Assembly (NCBI GenBank): GCA_032718475.1
Contig: JAUCBJ010007033.1
Location: 1-34,851 of the forward strand
Length of the DNA stretch: 34,851 nucleotides
Direction of reading: 5' to 3'
Origin: Nemertoderma westbladi
Lineage: Eukaryota > Animalia > Xenacoelomorpha
The notes under the pieces are model-generated. The model worked only from the letters and a program-made list of their open reading frames with translations, searched no databases and was not told the DNA's origin. Both the position numbers and the translations under genes were made by a program. This document shows positions 2,106 to 34,032 of the stretch, piece after piece; the stretch's first letter is position 1, and every line of letters starts with the position of its first letter.

Positions 2106-5100
2106 ATATGGGTTTATGGGGTATTATATATTTATAGGATATGGGTTTATGGGCGTATTATATATTTATAGGATATGGTTTTATGGGGTATTATATATTT
2201 ATAGAATATGGGTTTATGGGGTATTATATATTTATAGGATATGGGTTTATGGGCGTATTATATATTTATAGGATATGGGTTTATGGGTGTATTATATATT
2301 TATAGGATATGGGTTTATGGGCGTATTATATATTTATAGGATATGGGTTTATGGGCGTATTATATATTTATAGGATATGGGTTTATGGGCGTATTATATA
2401 TTTATAGGATATGGGTTTATGGGGTATTATATATTTATAGGATATGGGTTTATGGGTGTATTATATATTTATAGGATATGGGTTTATGGGGTATTATATA
2501 TTTATAGAATATGGGTTTATGGGTGTATTATATATTTATAGGATATGGGTTTATGGGCGTATTATATATTTATAGGATATGGATTAATGGGCGTATTATA
2601 TATTTATAGGATATGGGTTTATGGGCGTATTATATATTTATAGGATATGGGTTTATGGGCGTATTATATATTTATAGGATATGGGTTTATGGGCGTATTA
2701 TATATTTATAGGATATGGGTTTATGGGCGTATTATATATTTATAGGATATGGGTTTATGGGCGTATTATATATTTATAGGATATGGGTTTATGGGTGTAT
2801 TATATAATTATAGGATATGGGTTTATGGGGTATTATATATTTATAGAATATGGGTTTATGGGGTATTATATATTTATAGGATATGGGTTTATGGGCGTAT
2901 TATATATTTATAGGATATGGGTTTATGGGTGTATTATATATTTATAGGATATGGGTTTATGGGCGTATTATATATTTATAGGATATGGGTTTATGGGGTA
3001 TTATATATTTATAGGATATGGGTTTATGGGGTATTATATATTTATAGGATATGGGTTTATGGGCGTATTATATATTTATAGGATATGGGTTTATGGGCAT
3101 ATTATATATTTATAGGATATGGGTTTATGGGCGTATTATATATTTATAGGATATGGGTTTATGGGCGTATTATATATTTATAGGATATGGGTTTATGGGT
3201 GTATTATATATTTATAGGATATGGGTTTATGGGCGTATTATATATTTATAGGATATGGGTTTATGGGCGTATTATATATTTATAGGATATGGGTTTATGG
3301 GCGTATTATATATTTATAGGATATGGGTTTATGGGCGTATTATATATTTATAGGATATGGGTTTATGGGCGTATTATATATTTATAGGATATGGGTTTAT
3401 GGGTGTATTATATATTTATAGGATATGGGTTTATGGGCGTATTATATATTTATAGGATATGGGTTTATGGGCGTATTATATATTTATAGGATATGGGTTT
3501 ATGGGCGTATTATATATTTATAGGATATGGGTTTATGGGCGTATTATATATTTATAGGATATGGGTTTATGGGGTATTATATATTTATAGGATATGGGTT
3601 TATGGGGTATTATATATTTATAGGATATGGGTTTATGGGCGTATTATATATTTATAGGATATGGGTTTATGGGCATATTATATATTTATAGGATATGGGT
3701 TTATGGGCGTATTATATATTTATAGGATATGGGTTTATGGGCGTATTATATATTTATAGGATATGGGTTTATGGGTGTATTATATATTTATAGGATATGG
3801 GTTTATGGGCGTATTATATATTTATAGGATATGGGTTTATGGGCGTATTATATATTTATAGGATATGGGTTTATGGGCGTATTATATATTTATAGGATAT
3901 GGGTTTATGGGTGTATTATATATTTATAGGATATGGGTTTATGGGGTATTATATATTTATAGAATATGGGTTTATGGGGTATTATATATTTATAGGATAT
4001 GGGTTTATGGGCGTATTATATATTTATAGGATATGGGTTTATGGGCGTATTATATATTTATAGGATATGGGTTTATGGGCGTATTATATATTTATAGGAT
4101 ATGGGTTTATGGGCGTATTATATATTTATAGGATATGGGTTTATGGGTGTATTATATATTTATAGGATATGGGTTTATGGGCGTATTATATATTTATAGG
4201 ATATGGGTTTATGGGCGTATTATATATTTATAGGATATGGGTTTATGGGCGTATTATATATTTATAGGATATGGGTTTATGGGCGTATTATATATTTATA
4301 GGATATGGGTTTATGGGCGTATTATATATTTATAGGATATGGGTTTATGGGTGTATTATATATTTATAGGATATGGGTTTATGGGGTATTATATATTTAT
4401 AGAATATGGGTTTATGGGGTATTATATATTTATAGGATATGGGTTTATGGGCGTATTATATATTTATAGGATATGGGTTTATGGGTGTATTATATATTTA
4501 TAGGATATGGGTTTATGGGGTATTATATATTTATAGGATATGGGTTTAGGGGGTATTTTATATTTATAGAATATGGGTTTATGGGGTATTATATATTTAT
4601 AGGATATGGGTTTATGGGGTATTATATATTTATAGGATATGGGTTTATGGGGTATTATATATTTATAGAATATGGGTTTATGGGGTATTATATATTTATA
4701 GGATATGGGTTTATGGGGTATTATATATTTATAGGATATGGGTTTATGGGGTATTATATATTTATAGAATATGGGTTTATGGGGTATTATATATTTATAG
4801 GATATGGGTTTATGGGGTATTATTTATTTATAGGATATGGGTTTATGGGCGTATTATATATTTATAGGATATGGGTTTATGGGTGTATTATATATTTATA
4901 GGATATTGGTTTATGGGGTATTATATATTTATAGGATATGGGTTTATAGGTGAATTATATATTTATAGGATATGGGTTTATGGGGTATTATATATTTATA
5001 GAATATGGGTTTATGGGGTATTATATATTTATAGGATATGGGTTTATGGGGTATTATATATTTATAGGATATGGGTTTATGGGCGTATTATATATTTATA

Positions 5101-6052
5101 GGATATGGGTTTATGGGTGTATTATATATTTATAGGATATTGGTTTATGGGGTATTATATATTTATAGGATATGGGTTTATAGGTGAATTATATATTTAT
5201 AGGATATGGGTTTATGGGGTATTATATATTTATAGAATATGGGTTTATGGGGTATTATATTTTATAGGATATGGGTTTATGGGGTATTATATATTTATAG
5301 GATATGGGTTTATGTGGTATTATATAGGATATGGGTTTATGGGGTATTATATATTTATAGGATATGGGTTTATGGGGTATTATATATTTATAGAATATGG
5401 GTTTATGGGGTATTATAAATTTATAGGATATGGGTTTATGGGGTATTATATTTTATAGGATATGGGTTTATGGGGTATTATATATTTATAGGATATGGGT
5501 TTATGTGGTATTATATAGGATATGGGTTTATGGGGTATTATATATTTATAGGATATGGGTTTATCGGGTATTATATATTTATAGAATATGGGTTTATGGG
5601 GTATTATATTTTATAGGATATGGGTTTATGGGGTATTATATATTTATAGGATATGGGTTTATGTGGTATTATATAGGATATGGGTTTATGGGGTATTATA
5701 TATTTATAGGATATGGGTTTATGGGGTATTATATATTTATAGAATATGGGTTTATGGGGTATTATATATTTATAGGATATGGGTTTATGGGGTATTATTT
5801 ATTTATAGGATATGGGTTTATGGGCGTATTATATATTTATAGGATATGGGTTTATGGGTGTATTATATATTTATAGGATATTGGTTTATGGGCGTATTAT
5901 ATATTTATAGGATATGGGTTTATGGGCGTATTATATATTTATAGGATATGGGTTTATGGGCGTATTATATATTTATAGGATATGGGTTTATGGGTGTATT
6001 ATATATTTATAGGATATGGGTTTATGGGGTATTATATATTTATAGGATATGG
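2106..6052 (+). repeat. Minisatellite, 33/34-bp unit GATATGGGTTTATGGG(G/CG/TG)TATTATATATTTATAG, about 118 copies, inside a TRAF intron
   Basis: Directly visible tandem array. The last unit runs into the TRAF exon (tttatag|GATATGGAC). Confidence 0.98.
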
Positions 6053-6500: not shown

Positions 6501-7389
6501 GTAATAAACAATTTATTCATTCAAGGTACTAATGATTATCCTAGATATATTAAGGGGGGGGGGGGGGGGGGGTGTGTAGTAGTAGCTTGTAATATAATCA
6601 ATAAGTCCGTTGTATTGTAAATGTTGTCTAGACCAAGGCACAACTAAACCAAGTGGTTGCTATAATTAAGGAGACCATTACCCCAATCTACTTTTTTTTT
6701 ATATATAAAGCTTATGAGAACTGATGAGTTTGGATAACTTCGTAAACCCTATGTTCGGGCTATATTTTGCGTAACATGTATTTTGAGATAGACAAAGGGT
6801 TGCAGTTCGGTTGTATCGGTAATCGGTTGTAGAAGATCTAAATGGCCATGTTTTACAAAACATTGAAAAACACAAAACATTGAACGCATTAGACAACACC
6901 ACCAGGACGGATCCTGAGAAAGCCCGCCGCTGTATTGGGGCGAAACCTACCGATCAGCTGTCTGCAGTCAGCTGATCACTGAATACATGCATGTCTGGGT
7001 CTCCAGTCGTTTTTTTATTTACTTGTAGTTGTACAATGTACATACCAACCGGTACGGTTTTTTACTATTAGTAGCTTGATGTGAAATATAAATAAAATAT
7101 TATTAGAAACTTTTCAAGCTTTCCTTACTACTGGTTTTACAAAACCAATACTACAGTAACGATTGTAGCCCAAAAGCTGATGAACATGTTGAAGTATAAG
7201 TTTGATGGAAATTGAAAGAAAAATTAAAAAAAAGTAGTAGGGAATTTAGGCATGACAAAGTCTAAAACGACAAACTGAGTAAAAGGCTGCGCATTTCACT
7301 TCCGTTGAGGTTAATAGTCCCCTTAAATAATTTGCAGAAATTTAAGAGTTATATAAATAATTAATTATAAAAATGTATTTTACAAACAG

Positions 7390-7881
7390 GACAAACATTA
7401 CGGAAGTCAGATGGTATGGAGGATCGAGAAAGTAGACGAAAAGATGAAGTTGGCTGAGACCGGAGAGAAGTTAACGATCTTCAGTCCGCTGTTCTCGTCA
7501 GCGCGTCGCGGATACAAACTAATCGCGAGTCTGTGTCTCAACGGTGACGGAAAGTACTGCGGACAATTCGTAGCGGTTTACGTGTACGTATGTAAAGGAG
7601 AGTACGACTCCATACTGAAATGGCCGTTCCAGAACCAAATCACAATTAAATTATTCGATCAGTCGGAGAATTCTAACAAAGCTGTTGTTAAAAAATTGAA
7701 TCCTGTCGATTTATTAGAAGAACACCAAAGCTGTTTCACAAAACCGCCAAGAGATAAAAATCCACCATTCGGTCTCATTGCGTTTATTCCTAAAGAAGAT
7801 TTCCAAGAAGGAACTTTTATTAAAGACAATACTATGTATATCAGTTTCAACATAGATACTGAAAATACTCCGTTTCTATAA
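7390..7881 (+). CDS. TRAF4: TRAF-family gene, terminal exon encoding the TRAF-C/MATH domain (TRAF4-like)
   Basis: aaacag|GAC AAA CAT; motifs VWRI, FSPLFSSARRGYKL, LNGDG, GEYDSILKWPF, LFDQ, FIKDNTMYI; stop TAA at 7879-7881. The TRAF4 subfamily call is inferred from the GYKLxxSxxLNGxG motif. Confidence 0.92.
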   Translation, partial: DKHYGSQMVWRIEKVDEKMKLAETGEKLTIFSPLFSSARRGYKLIASLCLNGDGKYCGQFVAVYVYVCKGEYDSILKWPFQNQITIKLFDQSENSNKAVVKKLNPVDLLEEHQSCFTKPPRDKNPPFGLIAFIPKEDFQEGTFIKDNTMYISFNIDTENTPFL

Positions 7882-7918: not shown

Positions 7919-9160
7919 TGTAATGCATTACGTAATGGTGTTATTGAAGATATACGCATTGTGTAATGGTGTTATTGAATGTACGCATTGTGTAATGGTG
8001 TTATTGAATGTACGCATTGTGTAATGGTGTTATTGAATGTACGCATTGTGTAATGGTGTTATTGAAGATATACGCATTGTGTAATGGTGTTAGTGAAGGT
8101 ATACGCGATGGTGTAATGGTGTTATTGAAGATATACGCATCGTGTAATGGTGTTAGTGAAGGTATACGCGATGGTGTAATGGTGTTATTGAAGATATACG
8201 CATTGTGTAATGGTGTTATTGAATGTACGCATTGTGTAATGGTGTTATTGAATGTACGCATTATGTAATGGTGTTATTGAATGTACGCATTGTGTAATGG
8301 TGTTATTGAAGATATACGCATTGTGTAATGGTGTTATTGAATGTACGCAATATGTAATGGTGTTATTGAATGTACACATTGTGTAATGGTGTTATTGAAT
8401 GTACGCATTATGTAATGGTGTTATTGGTGGAGTAATGCATGTGTAATGGTGCTATTGAAGGTATACGCGATGGTGTAATGGTGTTATTGAAGATATACGC
8501 ATTGTGTAATGGTGTTATTGAATGTACGCATTGTGTAATGGTGTTATTGAATGTACGCATTGTGTAATGGTGTTATTGAAGATATACGCATTGTGTAATG
8601 GTGTTAGTGAAGGTATACGCGATGGTGTAATGGTGTTATTGAAGATATACGCATTGTGTAATGGTGTTAGTGAAGGTATACGCGATGGTGTAATGGTGTT
8701 ATTGAAGATATACGCATTGTGTAATGGTGTTATTGAATGTACGCAATATGTAATGGTGTTTTTGAATGTACACATTGTGTAATGGTTTTATTGAATGTAC
8801 GCATTGTGTAATGGTGTTATTGGTGGAGTAATGCATGTGTAATGGTGCTATTGAAGGTATACACGATGGTGTAATGGTGTTATTGTTGATTGCATGTGTA
8901 ATGATGTTATTGGAGATATACGCATTGTGCAACGGTGTTAGTGAAGGTATACGCGATGGTGTAATGGTGTTATTGAAGATATACGCATTGTGCAACGGTG
9001 TTAGTGAAGGTATACGCGATGGTGTAATGATGTTATTGGAGATATACGCATTGTGCAATGGTGTTATTGAAGGTACGCATTGTGTAATGGTGTTATTGAA
9101 GGTATACGCGATTGTGTAATGGTGTTATTGGTGATGTAATGGATGTTGTATAATGGTGTC
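7919..9160 (+). repeat. Minisatellite with 29-32-bp units (TGTAATGGTGTTATTGAATGTACGCATTG and variants) directly after the TRAF stop codon
   Basis: Visible tandem array with recurring variant units. Confidence 0.95.
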
Positions 9161-19584: not shown

Positions 19585-20377
19585 AGCCCAAAACAATTAC
19601 CAATTGATGGAAAGGAGCAGGTTAAGGCCGAGTTTTCTAACCAAAACAATAAACAGTCACTTTACCAAATCAGGGAAAGGAGCAGGTTACAGAGACGGGA
19701 TTTTCTAACCAAAACAATAAACGATCACTTAACTAATTGAGGGAAAGGAGCAGGTTACAGAGGCGGGATTTTCTAACCAAAACAATAAACGATCACTTAA
19801 CTTATTGAGGGAAAGGAGCAGGTTACAGAGGCGGGATTTTCTAACCAAAACAATAAACGATCATTTAACTAATTGAGGGAAAGGGACAGGTTACAGAGGC
19901 GGGATTTTCTAACCAAAACAATAAACGATCACTTAACTTATTGAGGGAAAGGAGCAGGTTACAGAGGCGGGATTTTCTAACCAAAACAATAAACGATCAT
20001 TTAACTAATTGAGGGAAAGGGACAGGTTACAGAGGCGGAATTTTCTAACCAAAACAATAAACGATCACTTAACTAATTGAGGGAAAGGAGCAGGTTACAG
20101 AGGCGGGATTTTCTAACCAAAACAATAAACGATCATTTAACTAATTGAGGGAAAGGGGCAGGTTACAGAGGCGGGCCTTTCTAACCAAAACAATAAACGG
20201 TCACTTTACCAATTCAGGGAAAGGAGCAGGTTACAGAGGCGGGATTTTCTAACCAAAACAATAAACGATCATTTAACTAATTGAGGGAAAAGGGCAGGTT
20301 ACAGAGGCGGGATTTTCTAACCAAAACAATAAACGATCATTTAACTAATTGAGAGAAAGGAGCAGGTTGCAGAGACG
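19585..20377 (+). repeat. 68-bp tandem repeat, about 11-12 copies
   Basis: Unit AATTGAGGGAAAGGAGCAGGTTACAGAGGCGGGATTTTCTAACCAAAACAATAAACGATCACTTAACT. About two further degenerate units lie at ~16638-16770. Confidence 0.95.
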
Positions 20378-22056: not shown

Positions 22057-22845
22057 TTTATAAAGCGCCTTTCTAAGCACTATTTCAAGGCGCTGTGTAG
22101 TGTATGTGTTGGTATGTACTGCGTGTACGTAGGTATTTTCTATAAAAACTGGCTAAAGAACACTAAAAACATAAGTAAAAAAAAACACAATCAAGTAAAA
22201 AGTTAGAACTATTTTAAAAAATTGCTTCAGCAATATTCCTGTACATAATAGTGAGTTTTCAGTTTTTCTTTAAAAATACCAAGGGTACTGGCCAGGCGTA
22301 TGTCTTTAGGTAAGGAATTCCAAATGCGAGGTGCCGCAACAGAGAACGCGCGCCTTCCATAGCTCTCAAGGTTGTATCGGGGTACAACCAATAATCCCTC
22401 ACCGCCCGAACGTAAGTCCCTCCCGGGTGTATATCGCTTGAGCAGTTCGCAGAGATAGCCCGGCGCGGTACCGTTCCAGCACTTGTATGACAACATAGCT
22501 AATTTATATTCAATACGCCTATTAATTGGGAGCCAGTGGAGGCGTTTCAGTACTGGGGTTATGTGCTCGCGCTTTCTAATACCTTCTAACATTCGCGCTG
22601 CTGAGTTCTGTACATATTGTAATTTCTTAATGTATTTATCAGGTAAACCATAGTAGAGTGAATTATTGTTGTCCAATTTATTTGTTATAAATGCATGTAT
22701 TAATATTTCCAATTCACATCTAGATAAATATCGCTTTATTTTAGAAAGGTTGCGTAGATGGAAGAAGGCGTCTCTAACTACGGTTGATATCTGATTTTTG
22801 AATGTTAGGTGAGAGTCAAAGAGGAAGCCAATGTTACGAGCATTG
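22028..22845 (-). mobile_element. 5'-truncated L2-clade LINE (C-terminus of ORF2, 3' stem-loop, (ATT)n tail)
   Basis: ARNIGFLFDSHLTF, LIHAFITNKLD..NSLYYGLP, LQYVQNSAAR, HITPVLKRLHWLP, RAFSVAAPRIWNSLP. The 3' end on the minus strand is AGCGCCTTGA..AAGGCGCTTTATAAATATTATT... Confidence 0.92.
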
Positions 22846-22985
22846 AAACGGCCACAGCAAGATTTATAAAATGAAAAATAAGTAAAATCAGCACAGCACA
22901 CAATATTATCAATATAGACATTGAAGACAATTTAATAAACAAATACTATAAAAAAATATCTACTAACAATCAATACATGATATAT

Positions 22986-23884: not shown

Positions 23885-24790
23885 GTTGATAGTAAGTTAT
23901 ATTTTGCAAATCACATTGATTTAATAACTAAAAAGTGCTATAAAGTAATTAATTGTTTATTTAGGTGTTTTTCTACTAACGACTGTGAAGCTATTTTATT
24001 TGCCTATAAAGTGTATGCAAGGCCGATTTTAGAATATGGTAGTGCAATATGGAACCCTTTTTGTAATTCAAAACCTTTTCTTGGCCTAACAGACAAGCTT
24101 GAGTCGGTCCAAAGATATTTTACCCGTAGGTTATTCCACCGGTGCTATTTAGATACTGATGCTTGTTACCTAAGAAGGCTAAAAATTTTGAAATTACAAT
24201 CACTAGAACTTAGACGAGTTCATATTGACCTAATTACTGTTTTTAAAATACTCAACGGTTTTATTTCATTAGAATCTAATAATTTATTTGTAAATGTAAA
24301 CTCATCTTCAATAAGACTGAGGGGGCACCCTTACAAATTGCAGCAAGGACATTGCAGAACTGTTGCGGTGCAGAACTCATTTACAAATCGTGTTGTGCCT
24401 GTTTGGAACAATCTACCTTTCGTTGCAGTGACTGCCCCCTCAGTTGAATTGTTCAAACGCCATATTTATGTGTGCGATTTTAATAATTGGATTAAATTTG
24501 ACCGCAATTTGTAACTATGCCAATTTCTAATTATTTTCTATTTTTCATATCATTAGTTCTATCTGAGTTCAACTCTTTTTAGCGACCTACACTTTTATTT
24601 TAACATGTAATAATATTTTAGCGTATTTTAATTTCGTTTTTAATCTTATTTTAATATGGTGCCATAGTATAAGTCGTTTTGTTTTATTCTCTGTTCAACT
24701 TTCTCCTGTTTTATTTTATTATGTGCAGTTTTATTTGTACGCTTCTATGACAGCGGTGTCTCCACCCAAATAATATAATAATAATAATAA
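23885..24790 (+). mobile_element. 5'-truncated CR1-clade LINE (ORF2 C-terminus 23885-24514, 3' UTR, ATA tail)
   Basis: Open frame VDSKLYFANHID...YKVYARPILEYGSAIWNP...LESVQRYFTR...LELRR..DL...LRGH.YKL...FTNRVVPVWNNLP. The 3' boundary is placed at the (ATA)n run and is approximate. Confidence 0.88.
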
Positions 24791-25118: not shown

Positions 25119-25685
25119 ATGGAGGACGATACTGACATGGAGGACGATGCGATTGTTCAAGATGCCTTGCAAGTAATCTTCGGATTGGGCGGCGAAACGG
25201 CCCATAAGCGATTGGAATTTGAGTTGCCCCCCAACCGACCGGATTCCCCGTCTACCGGCACCCCCGGGGAGGATGTGTTGCCTCGGTTCTGCTCGGCGAA
25301 AGAAAACAATAATGATGAAACCAAAGCAACGGACCCCGGGTCAGTAAAATGTTGTCCCCCACAGGAGGTCTCCGCTACGACTACGATAAGCTGTCGTCCC
25401 CCTATCGAACTTCCCCCCTCTAGTAAACTCTCTATATCCTTACACAACGTCGTCTCCACATTCAGCTGCCGTTGCCACCTCAACCTGCGTCGCATAGCGA
25501 CCGAGGCCACCAACGTGGAGTACCGCCCCGAGATGGGTCGTGTAATAATGCGTCTCAAACAGCCGAGAACTACGGCGCATTTAGTGAGTTCCGGGAAGAT
25601 CACTTGTACCGGGGCCGTATCGGAAGATGGTGCTAGGCGAGGGGCCCGGAAAGTCGCCGTTCTTCTAAAACGGTTGGGCTTCAAG
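25119..25685 (+). CDS. TBPL1: TBP-like factor (TRF2/TLF), coding exon 1
   Basis: ISLHNVVSTFSCRCHLNLRRIA..NVEY...VIMRLKQPRTTA..SSGKITCTGA.SE..ARR.ARK.A..LKRLGFK (first TBP repeat, TRF2 type); donor AAG|gtaagt, phase 0. Confidence 0.93.
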
Positions 25686-26009
25686 GTAAGTCTATCCTCC
25701 ACATCTGACCTCCATCTGTCCGAAGTGTCAGATCATATGGCAGCCATATTACTGTATTACAGTATTATGGCTGTATGGCACTTACTGGATTAGGCCTATC
25801 TGATTATCAGATTCATTTATTATAGGAAGGGATCTAGGGGTCTTAACCTCGAATGATAAGTTCATTTTACCTAAAATAACTTATCTTTCAGTCTTTTATT
25901 GGCGCAATTGTAGGACTAATCCCATCACATGCGTACTTTTTAACCGGGAAGTGTACAAATTTAGGAATCGCGTAATTTATCTTGAAATTAATATCTCATA
26001 TCTCTCCAA

Positions 26010-26052
26010 ACCACGTACGCGTTTCGACCTTACTGGGTCTCATCAGCGTGGT
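26010..26052 (-). ncRNA. Minimal type-I hammerhead ribozyme (minus-strand copy)
   Basis: Exact reverse complement of 26470-26512. Its upstream B box is mutated (GGTTCTAATCC); the A box at 26098-26108 is intact. Confidence 0.85.
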
Positions 26053-26413
26053 GTCGGATTAGAACCTGGGACCTCGATGTGGAAGCCGAGACTACAACCA
26101 CTAGGCCACAGGTTCTTGAGATATGGAGTATTAATTTCAAAGCCAGCTGACATTTTATTAGCCCCTGATTTTTTATTATTGATAGTAACAATGTGTTGGC
26201 AAGCTGTATTTTTCGAAGATAAGTTATTTTCGGTAAAATGAACTTATCATTCGAGGTTAAGACCCCTAGATCCCTTCCTATAATAAATGTATAATAACAA
26301 ACACCTCGAAAAATACAGCTTGCCAACACATTGTTACTATCAATAATAAAAAATCAGGGGCTAATAAAATGGCAGCTGGCTTTGAAATTAATACTCCATA
26401 TCTCAAGAACCTG

Positions 26414-26466
26414 TGGCCTAGTGGTTGTAGTCTCGGCTTCCACCTCGAGGTCCCAGGTTCGAATCC
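26414..26466 (+). promoter_or_regulatory. tRNA-like internal Pol III promoter (A box and B box)
   Basis: A box TGGCCTAGTGG at 26414-26424 and B box GGTTCGAATCC at 26456-26466, with tRNA-like spacing. There is no 3' acceptor strand, so this is not a tRNA gene. Confidence 0.8.
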
Positions 26467-26469
26467 GAC

Positions 26470-26512
26470 ACCACGCTGATGAGACCCAGTAAGGTCGAAA
26501 CGCGTACGTGGT
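26470..26512 (+). ncRNA. Minimal type-I hammerhead ribozyme
   Basis: Stem I ACCACG/CGTGGT; core CTGATGA (26476-26482); stem II GACC-cagtaa-GGTC; GAAA (26497-26500); palindromic mini stem III ACGCGT; cleavage triplet GUA, cut predicted after 26506. Confidence 0.88.
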
Positions 26513-27210
26513 TTGGAGAGATATGAGATATTAATTTCAAGATAAATTACGCGATTCCGAAATTTGTACACTTCCCGGTTAAAAAGTACGCATGTGATGG
26601 GATTAGTCCTACAATTGTGCCAATAAAAGATAAGTTATTTTCGGTAAAATAAACTTCAGAACTTATCATTCGAGGTAAAGACCCCTAGATCCCTTCCTAT
26701 AATAAATGTATAATAACAAACACCTCGAAAAATACAGCTTGCCAACACATTGTTACTATCAGATTCATGGCACAGTCTGACAGTTTAAACTCACCCCTGC
26801 ATTTCTCGATTTTCACTCTGTGCAAATTCATCCCCGGTTAAATTTCCTTACCGGTAGTATATTCTCACTCCCTGTGTATTTTTTTGTATCTTCTACAGTA
26901 TATACTTATACAAATCTCAAGCATGTGTTTGTCTGGGTGCTAGAGGTATCTGTGGTCTTAACTGTATTGGATTAACTTAACTTATATCGAATTTAGTTAA
27001 TATTGAAATTAAAATATCATGGGGGTGAGAATACACCGAGGGGGGTTAAATTTCACTAAAAAATCACCCAGAGTAGTTTCACCCCCGGTTAAAATGCCCT
27101 AGTGAATTTTAAGGGGGTGGAAATTATCTGTTACACCTACACCGGCCCCAGGGGCATATAATATATGCTTTATTTATTTGCTTTATTTCTTTTTTTATTT
27201 ACTTTTTAAG

Positions 27211-27516
27211 ATCCGCTTTATCAATTATCGCGTTGTTAACGTTCTCGCGAGCGTCGCCATGCCTTTTGGCGTGAAACTCGCTCCGTTCACCACCGCCAAT
27301 CGCACCATCGCGCGGTACGAGCCGGAACTCCATCCCGGGGTCACAGTCACTCTCAAACAGCCGGACTGCCGCGCAACACTCAAGGTCTTCTCTACCGGAA
27401 GTGTGACAGTGACGTCACGTCGTGTGAGTGACATCGGAGTCGCGGTCGAGAGAGTCTACCCGTTACTGGCGTTACATCGGAGAGACAAACAGTTGGAATC
27501 TAATTTGGATAGATAA
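27211..27516 (+). CDS. TBPL1: TBP-like factor (TRF2/TLF), coding exon 2 (last)
   Basis: tttttaag|ATC CGC gives IRFINYRVVNVLASVAMPFGVKL...YEPELHPGVT...ATLKVFSTGSVTVT. VVNVLA, YEPELHP and FSTGS distinguish TRF2 from TBP. Total length 290 aa. Confidence 0.93.
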   Translation: MRFINYRVVNVLASVAMPFGVKLAPFTTANRTIARYEPELHPGVTVTLKQPDCRATLKVFSTGSVTVTSRRVSDIGVAVERVYPLLALHRRDKQLESNLDR

Positions 27517-27521
27517 GGGCC

Positions 27522-30290
27522 GTGTCTGTATGTTTGTGTGTCTGTATGTTTGTGTGTCTGTTTGTTTGTGTGACTGAATGTTTGTTTTTGTCACTGGATG
27601 TTTGTTTTTGTGACTGAATGTTTGTTTTTGTGACTGAATGTTTGTTTTTGTGACTGAATGTTTGTTTTTGTGACTGAATGTTTGTTTGTGTGTCTGAATG
27701 TTTGTTTGTGTGTCTGAATGTTTGTTTTTGTGACTGAATGTTTGTTTTTGTGACTGAATGTTTGTTTGTGTGTCTGAATGTTTGTTTTTGTGACTGAATG
27801 TTTGTTTTTGTGACTGAATGTTTGTTTTTGTGACTGAATGTTTGTTTGAGTGACTGAATGTTTCTTTATTTGTTTGTGTAGGCGTATCGGTCTGTTTAAG
27901 TGCTCGAATTATTGTGTGTCTGTATGTTTGTTTGTGTGTCTGTGTGTTTGTTTACTTGTTTGTATGTCTGTAAGTTTGTTTGTGAGTCTGTGTGTTTGTT
28001 TACTTGTTTGTATGTCTGTAAGTTTGTTTGTGTGTCTGTATGTTTGTTTGTGTGTCTGTATGTTTGTGTGTGTGTGTCTGTCTGTTTAAGTGCTCGAATT
28101 ATTGTGTGTCTGTATGGTTGTATGTTTGTTTGTGTGTCTGTATGTTTGTTTGTGTGTCTGTATGTTTGATTGTGTGACTGAATGTTTGTTTTGTGTGTCT
28201 GTATGTTTGTTTGTGTGTCTGTATGTTTGTTTGTGTGTATTTATGTGTGTCTGTATGTGTGTTTGTGTGTCTGAATGTTTGTTTGTGTGTCTGTATGTTT
28301 GTTTGTGTGTCTGTATGTTTGCTTGTGTGTCTGTATGTTTGCTTGTGTGTCTGAATGTTTGTTTGTGTGTATGTATGTGTGTTTGTGTGTCTGTATGTGT
28401 GTTTGTGTTTCTGAATGTTTGCTTGTGTGTCTGTATGTTTGCTTGTGTGTCTGTATGTTTGTTTGTGTGTCTGTATGTGTGTTTGTGTGTCTGAATGTTT
28501 GTTTGTGTGTCTGTATGTTTGTTTGTGTGTCTGTATGTTTGTTTGTGTGTATGTATGTGTGTTTGTGTGTCTGTATGTGTGTTTGTGTTTCTGAATGTTT
28601 GTTTGTATGTCTGTATGTTTGTTTGTGTGTCTGTATGTTTGCTTGTGTGTCTGTATGTTTGCTTGTGTGTCTGAATGTTTGTTTGTGTTGTGTGTCTGAA
28701 TGTTTGTTTGTGTGTCTGTATGTTTGTTTGTGTGTCTGTATGTTTGCTTGTGTGTCTGTATGTTTGCTTGTGTGTCTGTATGTTTGTTTGTGTGTCTGAA
28801 TGTTTGTTTGTGTGTCTGTATGTTTGTTTGTGTGTCTGTATGTTTGCTTGTGTGTCTGTATGTTTGCTTGTGTGTCTGTATGTGTGTTTGTGTGTCTGAA
28901 TGTTTGTTTGTGTGTCTGTATGTTTGTTTGTGTGTCTGTATGTTTGCTTGTGTGTCTGTATGTTTGCTTGTGTGTCTGTATGTTTGTTTGTGTGTCTGAA
29001 TGTTTGTTTGTGTGTCTGTATGTTTGTTTGTGTGTCTGTATGTTTGCTTGTGTGTCTGTATGTTTGCTTGTGTGTCTGTATGTTTGTTTGTGTGTCTGAA
29101 TGTTTGTTTGTGTGTCTGTATGTTTGCTTGTGTGTCTGTATGTTTGCTTGTGTGTCTGAATGTTTGTTTGTGTGTCTGAATGTTTGTTTGTGTGTCTGTA
29201 TGTTTGTTTGTGTGTCTGTATGTTTGTTTGTGTGTCTGTATGTTTGTTTGTGTGTCTGAATGTTTGTTTGTGTGTCTGTATGTTTGTTTGTGTGTCTGTA
29301 TGTTTGTTTGTGTGTCTGAATGTTTGTTTGTGTGTCTGTATGTTTGTTTGTGTGTCTGTATGTTTGTTTGAGTGACTGAATGTTTGTTTGTGTGTCTGTA
29401 TGTTTGTTTGTGTGTCTGTATGTTTGTTTGTGTGTCTGAATGTTTGTTTGTGTGTCTGAATGTTTGTTTGTGTGTCTGTATGTTTGTTTGTGTGTCTGTA
29501 TGTTTGTTTGTATGTCTGAATGTTTGTTTGTGTGTCTGTATGTTTGTTTGTGTGTATGTATGTGTGTTTGTGTATCTGTATGTTTGTTTGTGTGTCTGAA
29601 TGTTTGTTTGTGTGTCTGTATGTTTGTTTGTGTGTCTGTATGTTTGTTTGAGTGACTGAATGTTTGTTTGTGTGTCTGTATGTTTGTTTGTGTGTCTGTA
29701 TGTTTGTTTGAGTGACTGAATGTTTGTTTGTGTGTCTGTATGTTTGTTTGTGTGTCTGTATGTTTGTTTGTGTGTCTGAATGTTTGTTTGTGTGTCTGAA
29801 TGTTTGTTTGTGTGTCTGTATGTTTGTTTGTGTGTATGTATGTGTGTTTGTGTATCTGTATGTTTGTTTGTGTGTCTGAATGTTTGTTTGTGTGTCTGTA
29901 TGTTTGTTTGTGTGTCTGTATGTTTTTTCGAGTGACTGAATGTTTGTTTGTGTGTCTGAATGTTTGTTTGTGTGTCTGAATGTTTGTTTGTGTGTCTGAA
30001 TGTTTGTTTGTGTGTCTGAATGTTTGTTTGTGTGTCTGAATGTTTGTTTGTGTGTCTGAATGTTTGTTTGTGTGTGTGTGTGTGTGTCTGTATGTTTGTT
30101 TGAGTGACTGAATGTTTGTTTGAGTGTCTGAATGTTTGTTTGTGTGTCTGTATGTTTGCTTGTGTGTCTGTATGTTTGTTTGTGTGTCTGTATGTTTGTT
30201 TGTGTCTGAATGTTTGTTTACTTGTTTGTGTGTCTGTATGTTTGTTTGTGTGTCTGTATGTTTGTTTGTTTGTCTTTATCTCTGTCTGTG
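27522..30290 (+). repeat. 20-bp GT-rich minisatellite (TGTTTGTTTGTGTGTCTGWA), about 135 units, starting ~5 bp after the TBPL1 stop
   Basis: Visible array. The first downstream AATAAA is at 30339-30344. Confidence 0.97.
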
Positions 30291-31547
30291 TGTTCGTATA
30301 CTTATTTGTTTTGTTATATAGAATCCCGAATGCAGGATAATAAATAAAATAAGAAACTTCATTTGAATAAATTCGATGCCACTTTCTGTATATTTATTTG
30401 ATAACCTATTAAAGCGAAATGTTAACTTCATATCTACCCGTATTGTAGTTTCTTTATATATTTACAGAGTAACTTTCTTTTTTATCTGGGTGGTTAAATG
30501 TTGAGTTCGGGGTAGAATTTAACAAACTGTAAATAGAAGGAGAGAGAAGGTTGTATTAATTCAATATGGAGTCCAGGGAGTTTTATTCGAATTACTTATT
30601 GTTGAGTATCGGATCGGTTGGCTGATCGCGTAATGTGCAGGTGATGCGTTCACCAAGCGGTAGGAGGCGTTACAAAGAAACAAATACCGATAATATAAAA
30701 CGGTCTCAGTCACACTGTGTTAGATTTAACAAGGTCCGCGCATTTTTTGCTCAATATTTCAGACCCACAGACTTTGAGATACTTTGTGCAAAGCAAAATT
30801 GTATTGACTAAAATTTGTCTTTGTTATAAATCATCATAGCGGGATGTTGCTGAACGTAATATTGCTCTTTATATTCTAGCAGGCGGTGCATGGCGGTGGT
30901 AAAAATACTTGTGTTAAGCCGGCACAGCATCTCAATGTGCAGTTCCAATGCTGCAGGCCAATTACCAGTGTAAAATTCGCTTAAAAATCCCAATAGATTA
31001 CCACTCCCGATTCACAATAGATAATGAGGCGTTTTGACCCACCCTTTGTCGCATCTGAAATACTTGCGATAAAACGCATTAATATCGCTTGCAGAAGTGT
31101 GCGATTAATCGCATTCATTACACATGCGACCCCTTTGCGATACATATTGTATTATGTGATACTGTGAAAAATCACAATATTATAATTTGGGATGATGAAT
31201 AGCAGTTAATAAAGAATACTTGCGATAAATATGTGATAAAAATAATCGCAAAAATACTTACGATTATTTAATAAAAATTATGTAATTATGTAAAAATGAT
31301 GGTAAGATTGTTGGTGGATGTAGTAATGGTATGTTGTGTGACTGAATAAAATGAATGATACGTTATGTGAATAACTCGAAAACAAAAGTTTAGTTTTTAG
31401 TTTTTTGCATTTAGTTCAATAAAACATTCACATATTCCGACAGGGTATAGAACAAACAGGAAGGGGCTGGGGTGTGGGGGGGGGGGGTGGCTACTGAGAT
31501 GGCAATACAATGAACGAGAGTCAATAGTAAATAATCCATTTTTGCTT

Positions 31548-34032
31548 TCAATGAACTGATATTTGCTGCAATGAACTGATATTTGCTGCAATGAACTGAT
31601 ATTTGCTGCAATGAACTGATGTTTGCTGCAATGAACTGATATTTGCTGCAATGAACTGATATTTGCTGCAATGAACTGATATTTGCTGCAATGAACTGAT
31701 GTTTGCTGCAATGAACTGATATTTGCTGCAATGAACTGATATTTGCTGCAATGAACTGATGTTTGCTGCAATGAACTGATATTTGCTGCAATGAACTGAT
31801 ATTTGCTGCAATTAACTGATATTTGCTGCAATGAACTGATATTTGCTGCAATGAACTGATGTTTGCTGCAATGAACTGATATTTGCTGCAATGAACTGAT
31901 ATTTGCTGCAATTAACTGATATTTGCTGCAATGAACTGATATTTGCTGCAATGAACTGATATTTGCTGCAATGAACTGATGTTTGCTGCAATGAACTGAT
32001 ATTTGCTGCAATGAACTGATATTTGCTGCAATGAACTGATATTTGCTGCAATGAACTGATGTTTGCTGCAATGAACTGATATTTGCTGCAATGAACTGAT
32101 ATTTGCTGCAATGAACTGATATTTGCTGCAATGAACTGATATTTGCTGCAATTAACTGATGTTTGCTGCAATGAACTGATATTTGCTGCAATGAACTGAT
32201 ATTTGCTGCAATTAACTGATATTTGCTGCAATGAACTGATATTTGCTGCAATTAACTGATATTTGCTGCAATGAACTGATGGTTGCTGCAATGAACTGAT
32301 ATTTGCTGCAATGAACTGATATTTGCTGCAATGAACTGATATTTGCTGCAATGAATTGATGTTTGCTGCAATGAACTGATATTTGCTGCAATGAACTGAT
32401 ATTTGCTGCAATTAACTGATATTTGCTGCAATGAACTGATGGTTGCTGCAATGAACTGAAATTTGCTGCAATGAACTGATATTTGCTGCAATGAACTGAT
32501 ATTTGCTGCAATGAACTGATATTTGCTGCAATTAACTGATGTTTGCTGCAATGAACTGATATTTGCTGCAATGAACTGATATTTGCTGCAATTAACTGAT
32601 ATTTGCTGCAATGAACTGATATTTGCTGCAATTAACTGATATTTGCTGCAATGAACTGATGGTTGCTGCAATGAACTGATATTTGCTGCAATGAACTGAT
32701 ATTTGCTGCAGTGAACTGATATTTGCTGCAATGAATTGATGTTTGCTGCAATGAACTGATATTTGCTGCAATGAACTGATATTTGCTGCAATGAACTGAT
32801 ATTTGCTGCAATTAACTGATGTTTGCTGCAATGAACTGATATTTGCTGCAATGAACTGAAATTTGCTGCAATGAACTGATATTTGCTGCAATGAACTGAT
32901 ATTTGCTGCAATGAACTGATATTTGCTGCAATTAACTGATGTTTGCTGCAATGAACTGATATTTGCTGCAATGAACTGATATTTGCTGCAATGAACTGAA
33001 ATTTGCTGCAATGAACTGATATTTGCTGCAATGAACTGATATTTGCTGCAATGAACTGATATTTGCTGCAATTAACTGATGTTTGCTGCAATGAACTGAT
33101 ATTTGCTGCAATGAACTGATATTTGCTGCAATTAACTGATATTTGCTGCAATGAACTGATATTTGCTGCAATTAACTGATATTTGCTGCAATGAACTGAT
33201 GGTTGCTGCAATGAACTGATATTTGCTGCAATGAACTGATATTTGCTGCAATGAACTGATATTTGCTGCAATGAATTGATGTTTGCTGCAATGAACTGAT
33301 ATTTGCTGCAATGAACTGATATTTGCTGCAATTAACTGATATTTGCTGCAATGAACTGATGGTTGCTGCAATGAACTGAAATTTGCTGCAATGAACTGAT
33401 ATTTGCTGCAATGAACTGATATTTGCTGCAATGAACTGATATTTGCTGCAATTAACTGATGTTTGCTGCAATGAACTGATATTTGCTGCAATGAACTGAT
33501 ATTTGCTGCAATTAACTGATATTTGCTGCAATGAACTGATATTTGCTGCAATTAACTGATATTTGCTGCAATGAACTGATGGTTGCTGCAATGAACTGAT
33601 ATTTGCTGCAATGAACTGATATTTGCTACAATGAACTGATATTTGCTGCAATGAATTGATGTTTGCTGCAATGAACTGATATTTGCTGCAATGAACTGAT
33701 ATTTGCTGCAATTAACTGATATTTGCTGCAATGAACTGATGGTTGCTGCAATGAACTGATATTTGCTGCAATGAACTGATATTTGCTGCAATGAACTGAT
33801 ATTTGCTGCAATGAATTGATGTTTGCTGCAATGAACTGATATTTGCTGCAATGAACTGATATTTGCTGCAATTAACTGATATTTGCTGCAATGAACTGAT
33901 GGTTGCTACAATGAACTGATATTTGTTGCAATGAACTGATATTTGCTGCAATGAACTGATATTTGCTGCAATGAACTGATATTTGCTACAATGAACTTAT
34001 TTACTGCAATGAACTGATATTTGCTGCAATGA
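31548..34032 (+). repeat. 20-bp satellite ATTTGCTGCAATGAACTGAT, about 124 copies
   Basis: Highly homogeneous visible array with recurring single-base variants. Confidence 0.98.

Follow-up and report, generated by a model that had tools for sequence, protein, structure and literature searches.

An inverted and partly tandem insertion of a young 411-bp repeat family with a putative RNA polymerase III head and a predicted hammerhead ribozyme in a TBP-family intron

What kind of element is inserted in the TBP-family intron on contig JAUCBJ010007033.1 of Nemertoderma westbladi, and how did it come to lie there as one inverted and 1.3 forward copies of a 411-bp unit between 12-bp direct repeats? 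Both questions were addressed within the window (the whole 34,851-nt stretch of DNA that was analysed), in public sequencing runs and in the literature. The reading that we prefer, at a probability of roughly 60%, is that the locus is one insertion of a young, high-copy, non-coding family which combines an RNA polymerase III (Pol III) head with a type-I hammerhead, and that it was made by twin-primed target-primed reverse transcription through a Penelope-like reverse transcriptase. An initial annotation, made from the letters of the stretch, had described the element as a hybrid of a short interspersed nuclear element (SINE) and a retrozyme that would be mobilised by a Penelope-like reverse transcriptase. 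Its motifs, the family and the insertion pattern speak for that description; the hybrid design is not new, because Sm-alpha of Schistosoma already joins a transfer RNA (tRNA) head to a hammerhead. Statements on published systems refer throughout to the excerpts of the cited papers that were available.

The host gene belongs to the TBP family, with Pfam TBP matches in both exons that flank the insertion; a search for homologous proteins with the upstream TBP exon returned no match at E ≤ 1e-5. Positions in the 411-nt unit are numbered from 1 at 26219 to 411 at 26629. The parts of the locus are listed below, with the evidence used for each in brackets.

25119..25685, plus strand: upstream coding exon with the first TBP repeat; a GT splice donor comes next (Pfam TBP, E 6.4e-22; sequence)
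25686..27210, plus strand: host-gene intron, between the two TBP exons
25805..25816, no strand: left 12-bp direct repeat TATCAGATTCAT (target-site duplication), whose last 3 nt (CAT) double as element (direct reading)
25811..26216, minus strand: inverted copy, comprising unit 88-411, an 8-nt insert and unit 1-74, with its 3' end at the left flank (blastn, inverted repeats, alignment)
26216..26629, plus strand: full forward unit, 411 nt from 26219, which meets the inverted copy 5' end to 5' end, overlapping by 1-3 nt (blastn, alignment)
26630..26761, plus strand: partial second forward unit, positions 1-124 plus an 8-nt insert, with its 3' end at the right flank (blastn, alignment)
26757..26768, no strand: right 12-bp direct repeat TATCAGATTCAT, whose first 5 nt (TATCA) double as element (direct reading, alignment)
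27211..27516, plus strand: downstream coding exon with the second TBP repeat, after a pyrimidine tract and AG (Pfam TBP, E 4.5e-17; sequence)

The non-coding 411-bp monomer of the initial annotation, in one inverted and about 1.3 tandem copies, was thus recovered by blastn, inverted-repeat detection and alignment, and the 12-bp target-site duplication with terminal microhomology was present at both of its ends. Within the inverted copy, two segments (26216 to 25893, unit 88-411; 25884 to 25811, unit 1-74) are separated by the insert at 25885-25892 and share 98.5% and 97.3% blastn identity, respectively, with the unit. The arms are joined by their 5' ends at 26216-26219, and both 3' ends point to the flanks, where they are offset by ~50 nt in the unit. 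Microhomology spans 3 nt at the left outer junction and 5 nt at the right outer junction, and it was also found at the inner junction. This layout would be the geometry of target-primed reverse transcription, with a 12-bp staggered cut whose two 3'-OH ends primed on element RNA by microhomology. A DNA transposon with terminal inverted repeats was rejected, given that the outer termini are not complementary (unit 74 versus unit 124).

In the alignment the arms disagree at 5 of 324 positions, one of these being a G-to-T change within the B box of the inverted copy, and their hammerheads are identical. At unit positions 325 and 355 (26543/25979 and 26573/25949) both arms carry the same non-majority letters, and such shared private variants fit one event from one source. 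The partial forward unit stops at position 124, short of the tRNA-hammerhead module. Each strand of the locus accordingly holds one sense ribozyme, where retrozymes are recognised by tandem copies that each carry a hammerhead; with a single sense hammerhead per strand, the locus is predicted to be unable to release a unit in cis. No further copy of the unit was detected within the window by blastn, and the 1.3-copy array was not reported by Tandem Repeats Finder, as expected below two copies. The unit has a GC content of 39.4%, and no open reading frame (ORF) across the element had a Pfam match.

Some further observations concern the two arms and the host transcript. Four of the five differences between the arms (25811-26216 versus 26306-26629) are G-to-T or C-to-A transversions, among them the change in the inverted B box. 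At the level of the TBP-family pre-mRNA, 25811-26630 makes up a near-perfect hairpin (325-nt arms that are 98% complementary, and a 77-nt arm pair), and the pairing of the two arms would give long double-stranded RNA. Sub-threshold Rfam matches to "miRNA" families at 26128-26394 (MIR7996 at 84.8 bits, and others) were rejected, since the long inverted repeat produces them as artefacts. The insertion makes the host intron three times as long and adds a near-perfect hairpin of ~400 bp to the pre-mRNA.

Whether the unit carries its own means of transcription and processing depends on a short module, the parts of which are as follows.

26382..26404, plus strand: left arm of a 23-nt imperfect inverted repeat around the tRNA-hammerhead module (87% complementary)
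26411..26477, plus strand: degenerate tRNA-derived head with A and B boxes and an anticodon-like loop CUUCCAC (pattern match; relaxed ARAGORN)
26464..26517, plus strand: type-I hammerhead motif of the forward copy (reading, Rfam, fold, descriptor)
26518..26540, plus strand: right arm of the 23-nt imperfect inverted repeat (87% complementary)
26227..26230, plus strand: T4 run, a potential Pol III terminator and the sole one on the sense strand of the unit, found again at 26638-26641 (sequence)
26005..26058, minus strand: inverted-copy hammerhead, which has the same sequence as the forward one, with a predicted cut between 26016 and 26015 (Rfam HH9, descriptor, alignment)
26056..26108, minus strand: Pol III boxes of the inverted copy, with the A box at 26098-26108 and the B box, which a G-to-T change turns into GGTTCTAATCC, at 26056-26066 (alignment)

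In the forward hammerhead, helix I pairs ACCACG (26470-26475) with CGUGGU (26507-26512) over 6 bp. The core consists of CUGAUGA (26476-26482) and GAAA (26497-26500), followed by C, GC and a GUA triplet that ends at 26506. Helix II has 4 bp (GACC/GGUC) and a CAGUAA loop, and helix III has 2 bp (AC/GU) around GC, inside the palindrome ACGCGU. Cleavage is predicted after A26506 of the GUA triplet. All core letters (CUGAUGA ... GAAA ... UH) were read in both copies, so that the complete core claimed by the initial annotation stands. The same is true of the proposed extension of helix I into the B box: in the minimum-energy fold of 26405-26530, which contains helices I and II, five further pairs (UCCGA/UUGGA) were formed past a bulged C26469, and they start within the B box. 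The class that had been named for the ribozyme, "minimal", gave way to another. In the canonical metazoan type-I form, helix I has ~6 bp and is open-ended, helix II has ~4 bp, and helix III has 1-2 bp with a palindromic loop of 2-4 nt (Cervera & de la Pena, PMC4209133); the helix sizes found here fit that description, and the motif was reassigned as canonical type-I with a short helix III. Since a helix III of 2 bp with a 2-base loop is not formable in one molecule, it would form only between two copies. When two motifs were co-folded, a double hammerhead with an intermolecular ACGCGU helix was predicted (−44.3 versus 2 × −18.0 kcal/mol).

Across the window, a descriptor of the hammerhead core gave three overlapping matches, confined to the two element copies, with 0.17 expected; 1 of 100 shuffled sequences reached three. 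The Rfam scan by which the initial annotation would have had the ribozyme checked gave a divided answer: Hammerhead_HH9 was found on both copies below threshold, with E values of 5e-5 for the forward copy on 146 nt and 1e-4 to 4e-4 on 1.1 kb, and with 28.2 bits on the inverted copy (25995-26062, minus strand), and no family was found at gathering score. In two DNA runs described below (X1 and X2), the only variants listed within the hammerhead were 26478 G>T and 26486 C>A, both of them destructive and rare, and no variant within it reached 1% of depth in either run. The family carries a well-formed type-I hammerhead motif, for which self-cleavage is predicted.

Directly ahead of the hammerhead, as had been annotated, lie an A box (TGGCCTAGTGG, 26414-26424) and a B box (GGTTCGAATCC, 26456-26466), which start 42 nt apart, a tRNA-like spacing; the imperfect inverted repeat said to bracket the module was likewise located, at the two 23-nt arms listed above. 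The pattern AGTGG-N25-45-GGTTCGANNCC was matched once in the window, in the forward copy only, versus 0 matches in 100 shuffles. At 70% of its normal threshold, ARAGORN reported a degenerate 67-nt cloverleaf at 26411-26477 with an 8-nt anticodon loop. The 3' acceptor-like strand of the head, ACCACG, is at the same time the 5' strand of hammerhead helix I. Judged from its letters, the head derives from a tRNA and leads directly into the ribozyme core; a tRNA fold is not predicted for it. The unit has one T4 run in the sense direction versus six T4-T6 runs on the antisense strand, an asymmetry that would fit a sense strand transcribed by Pol III.

In order to place this locus among its relatives, four public runs were aligned to 25700-26900 at a likeness of at least 85%; two of them (X1 and X2) are DNA from a single organism (organism A). 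The unique left flank had a depth of 15-30 in X1 and 14-36 in X2, and the element bins reached 77,000-533,000 over 4029 contigs in X1 and 29,000-334,000 over 1606 contigs in X2. The resulting element-to-flank ratio of ~10^4 is an order of magnitude only, as summed contig depth is no copy number. Depth was roughly even across the unit. Of the X1 contigs, 3384 (84%) were at least 95% alike, a high likeness from which it follows that the family is young. The 411-bp unit is a young, very high-copy mobile family; the depth ratio and the thousands of contigs with differing flanks bear out the genuine, non-coding repeat that had been annotated.

The ends of the family were also legible in the aligned runs. 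Among the 18 rows of loose contig ends shown, from a set with 612 more, six rows (34 contigs) fell at 26283-26292 and 26346-26347, which correspond to unit positions 65-74 and 128-129. The letters beyond these clustered ends disagree among contigs, which fits element ends beside many different flanks, and the clusters match the 3' ends of the present locus (~74 and 124). Joints between opposite strands at other positions made up 4 of the 15 joint rows shown (from a set with 62 more), which points to inverted junctions in further members of the family.

Two other sets of observations were made along the way. Immediately right of the insertion, the stretch 26766-27140 is moderately repeated in organism A, where its depth was 480-1530 and that of the left flank 15-30. 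Short inverted and direct repeats lie in this stretch, which may be a small element resembling a miniature inverted-repeat transposable element. Scans of viral and of prokaryote genomes with the hammerhead of the family gave 0 matches each. A metagenome scan with a B-box plus hammerhead pattern gave four loci in unrelated tRNA-like contexts, which were rejected as members of this family. On two of the metagenome contigs (L003 and L004), prokaryote-type tRNA genes are followed within a few bases by CTGATGAG...CGAAAC; both matches are probably due to chance, with ~2 expected by a rough estimate.

A fourth run (X4, from organism B, its kind guessed as RNA) gave a single contig of 441 nt at a depth of 13.8. 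It spans 26259-26707 without the 8-nt insert, which is unit 41-411 plus 1-70, and its first and last 30 letters lie on the same unit positions (441 = 411 + 30). At 26677, the sole place where the two units of the window differ, the contig has an A>T change by which its ends agree. In the Logan resource, circular contigs are recognised by 30-mer end repeats (PMC12424806). The X4 contig maps as a closed 411-nt cycle, which gives a hint of an RNA circle and, for the family as a whole, the sole hint of tandem copies that would each bear the ribozyme. Among the public runs, no RNA run was listed for the stretch. Folded as a circle, the 411-nt unit had 62% of its bases paired and reached −103.0 kcal/mol, where 100 dinucleotide shuffles gave −81.4 ± 4.8 (z −4.5), and the 23-nt bracketing repeat formed a stem that bears the tRNA-hammerhead module.

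The life cycle that we propose would begin with the internal A and B boxes, which would recruit Pol III to start ~10 nt upstream of 26414. Arrays of tandem units would yield RNAs longer than one unit, either because Pol III reads past the single T4 run or because host transcription runs through the array. Two hammerheads, on successive units or on separate RNAs, would then pair via the ACGCGU palindrome into a double hammerhead, and cuts after GUA would yield 411-nt monomers with the promoter near their 3' end. A cellular ligase of the RtcB type would likely close such monomers into circles, as has been shown with other animal retrozymes. At a new target, a Penelope-type enzyme would place nicks 12 bp apart, and both 3'-OH ends would pair with a few bases of element RNA (...CAT with AUG near unit 71-74, and ...TGATA with UAUCA at 120-124). 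The two complementary DNAs copied from the nicked ends would finally meet head to head. We infer ribozyme activity, Pol III transcription, RNA circles and a helper element. For the inverted arm, twin priming is needed whatever the template. The initial annotation had taken the 1.3x tandem as the sign of a circular template; this did not hold as a specific sign, since multimeric RNA or template jumping would be equivalent.

A further-reaching version is offered tentatively and is the less probable one. The family would be a self-promoted animal retrozyme, with the 3' acceptor strand of a tRNA gene serving a dimer-dependent hammerhead as its helix I, and a Penelope-like enzyme would copy circles or multimers from two fixed points ~54 nt apart. 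If this were true, a module of ~100 nt would give both Pol III transcription and unit-length processing. There would be two fixed start points, one for each nicked target strand, and a class of Penelope-dependent SINEs. The insertions would then be a readable footprint of the Penelope integration mechanism.

Several results weigh against the Pol III, hammerhead and Penelope-like reading that we prefer. With regard to the head, no tRNA was found by ARAGORN at default settings or by the Rfam tRNA model at E ≤ 10, and its minimum-energy fold is a long hairpin with no cloverleaf. At the T4 run ~120 nt past the cut, at least some Pol III transcripts would terminate after ~230 nt, short of a full unit and of a second hammerhead. 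With regard to the ribozyme, the Hammerhead_HH9 matches on the two copies score 26.6 and 28.2 bits, about half of the gathering score of 52, and no Rfam family matches the hammerhead region at gathering score; the copies of the unit are too alike for covariation, and the stems rest on one sequence. The closed cycle in X4 would be given equally by perfect tandem DNA or RNA, that run was only guessed to be RNA, and almost none of the words of the unit occur in two further runs from its study. Finally, the family 3' ends (unit ~74 and ~128) coincide with neither the T4 run nor the cut site, the 3'-end offset of ~50 nt (unit 75-124) exceeds the published tail of 30-40 bp, and no reverse transcriptase or GIY-YIG domain was found by Pfam in the 55 of 61 non-satellite ORFs of at least 70 aa in the window that were scanned.

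The strongest competitor, which we nevertheless consider unlikely, is an ordinary tRNA-derived SINE moved by a long interspersed nuclear element (LINE), with the hammerhead as a passenger or relic and the inverted arm as the product of LINE-type twin priming. Twin priming is established for LINE-1, and A and B boxes with a 12-bp duplication would suit any SINE. Two ORFs nearby (22230-22931, minus strand, 234 aa; 23885-24511, plus strand, 209 aa) resemble the C-termini of LINE reverse transcriptases by motif likeness only; against their relevance, neither had a Pfam match and neither is related to the 411-bp unit. Neither 3' end of the insertion carries a poly(A) or microsatellite tail. Moreover, each arm holds the whole module and the arms sum to more than two units, which LINE twin priming on a single SINE RNA of unit length does not yield. 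The combination of a partial tandem, an inverted copy and a one-sided extension is instead the pattern published for Penelope-like elements (PMC8557442).

Still less probable is spread at the DNA level in the manner of a satellite, in which microhomology-mediated repair of breaks would take in excised DNA circles or the products of fold-back repair, and neither ribozyme nor boxes would matter for the spread. Microhomology at the outer and inner junctions, the about even depth over the unit, and a closed 411-nt cycle that could be circular or tandem DNA are all compatible with such a route. What it leaves unaccounted for is a clean 12-bp duplication with outward 3' ends, which corresponds to staggered nicks and priming and not to end joining, as well as thousands of contigs with differing flanks whose ends are clustered at two positions of the unit. 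The depletion of T-runs in the sense (1 versus 6 antisense) would likewise fit selection on a transcribed strand. Lastly, that the hammerhead-like and tRNA-like motifs are chance resemblances in a repeat, with no RNA function, is very improbable in spite of the sub-gathering Rfam scores, the lack of covariation and the lack of a default tRNA call, as all core nucleotides, three helices of typical size and a palindromic helix III occur together where the descriptor expects 0.17 matches in the window, two perfect Pol III boxes stand at tRNA spacing directly upstream, and Sm-alpha has the same combination.

The remainder of the window is rich in tandem repeats. A 34-bp satellite occupies 2106-6052 (118 copies, 95% matches), arrays with periods of 29, 63 and 244 lie at 7925-9130, and a 68-bp array of 11 copies lies at 19602-20374. 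Downstream of the TBP-family gene are two arrays of 20-bp period (27523-30293 and 31549-34032, with 139 and 124 copies), the first of which begins 7 nt past the stop codon of that gene. At 7357-7878 (plus strand), an ORF matches the TRAF/meprin MATH domain (Pfam PF21355, E 3e-29); a TRAF-like gene probably has one of its exons there.

Returning to the retrozyme-like family with its putative Pol III head and Penelope-like integration, its interest is twofold. It bears on retrozyme transcription, in that a ribozyme motif is joined to a textbook Pol III promoter motif, and on retrozyme insertion, in that its very young junctions are still legible, with outward 3' ends, short microhomologies and the 12-bp duplication. 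Since a single genome contains ~10^4 copies that are nearly identical, a model of twin-primed Penelope integration becomes testable.

The closest known system by description is that of the SINE-like Schistosoma retroposons Sm-alpha and Sj-alpha, reportedly described by Ferbeyre et al. in 1998. As in the present family, a Pol III head of tRNA origin precedes a type-I hammerhead in the Sm-alpha unit. Excerpts of later work describe Sm-alpha as a tRNA-derived, hammerhead-bearing SINE (PMC2770079, PMC6765202, PMC8490949), copies of which were called as tRNA-Gln-TTG genes or pseudogenes by tRNAscan (PMC2770079). The units are a few hundred bp long in both cases (335 bp there and 411 bp here), and the more than 10,000 tandem and dispersed copies there compare with a depth ratio of ~10^4 here. 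Cleavage leaves the Sm-alpha monomer with its promoter at the 3' end, and propagation therefore needs tandems (PMC6765202); the predicted monomer of the present unit would likewise have a 3'-terminal promoter, with which only tandems would propagate. The two differ in host, and the GC-rich exons of the present one would speak against a schistosome. The head of the 411-bp unit, moreover, is not called by default tRNA detection, and its acceptor-like strand is a strand of ribozyme helix I. Outside Schistosoma, no tRNA-headed hammerhead element was found in the literature searched, which did not cover subscription journals and Repbase reports.

Metazoan non-LTR (non-long terminal repeat) retrozymes are described as non-coding units of 150-450 bp with low GC content and a canonical type-I hammerhead (Cervera & de la Pena 2020, PMC7229834), and the 411-bp non-coding, low-GC unit with its canonical type-I motif agrees with this. 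It also shares with them a duplication of more than 4 bp, a predicted circle that is self-paired and a proposed Penelope-like helper. Such a helper has been proposed for animal retrozymes from co-occurrence and from similarity of pseudo-LTRs (pLTRs), and animal retrozymes have been argued to be non-autonomous Penelope derivatives (Li, Clavereau & Pollet 2026, bioRxiv 10.64898/2026.07.22.740005). Metazoan retrozymes seem promoterless according to the excerpt of a 2020 review (PMC7761336), whereas the 411-bp unit has perfect A and B boxes. They form tandem arrays, while here there is an inverted copy and a 1.3x tandem with a single sense ribozyme per strand. In vertebrates they are reported to be excluded from introns (10.64898/2026.07.22.740005), whereas the present copy is intronic.

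Insertions of endonuclease-bearing Penelope-like elements, as excerpted from Craig et al. (2021, PMC8557442), comprise a partial tandem, an adjacent inverted copy that is 5'-truncated, and a one-sided tail of 30-40 bp. In comparison with these, the present locus has no ORF and a unit of 411 bp instead of 3-4 kb, its hammerhead is canonical with a helix III instead of the minimal form that lacks it, and its extension measures ~50 nt instead of 30-40 bp. Shared with them are a hammerhead within the repeated part and a partial tandem of pseudo-LTR type beside an inverted copy truncated at its 5' end; further shared traits are the 3' extension on one side and a duplication whose length varies. On this comparison, the layout of the locus, with its head-to-head arms, offset 3' ends and microhomology, suggests the twin-primed pattern of Penelope-like elements.

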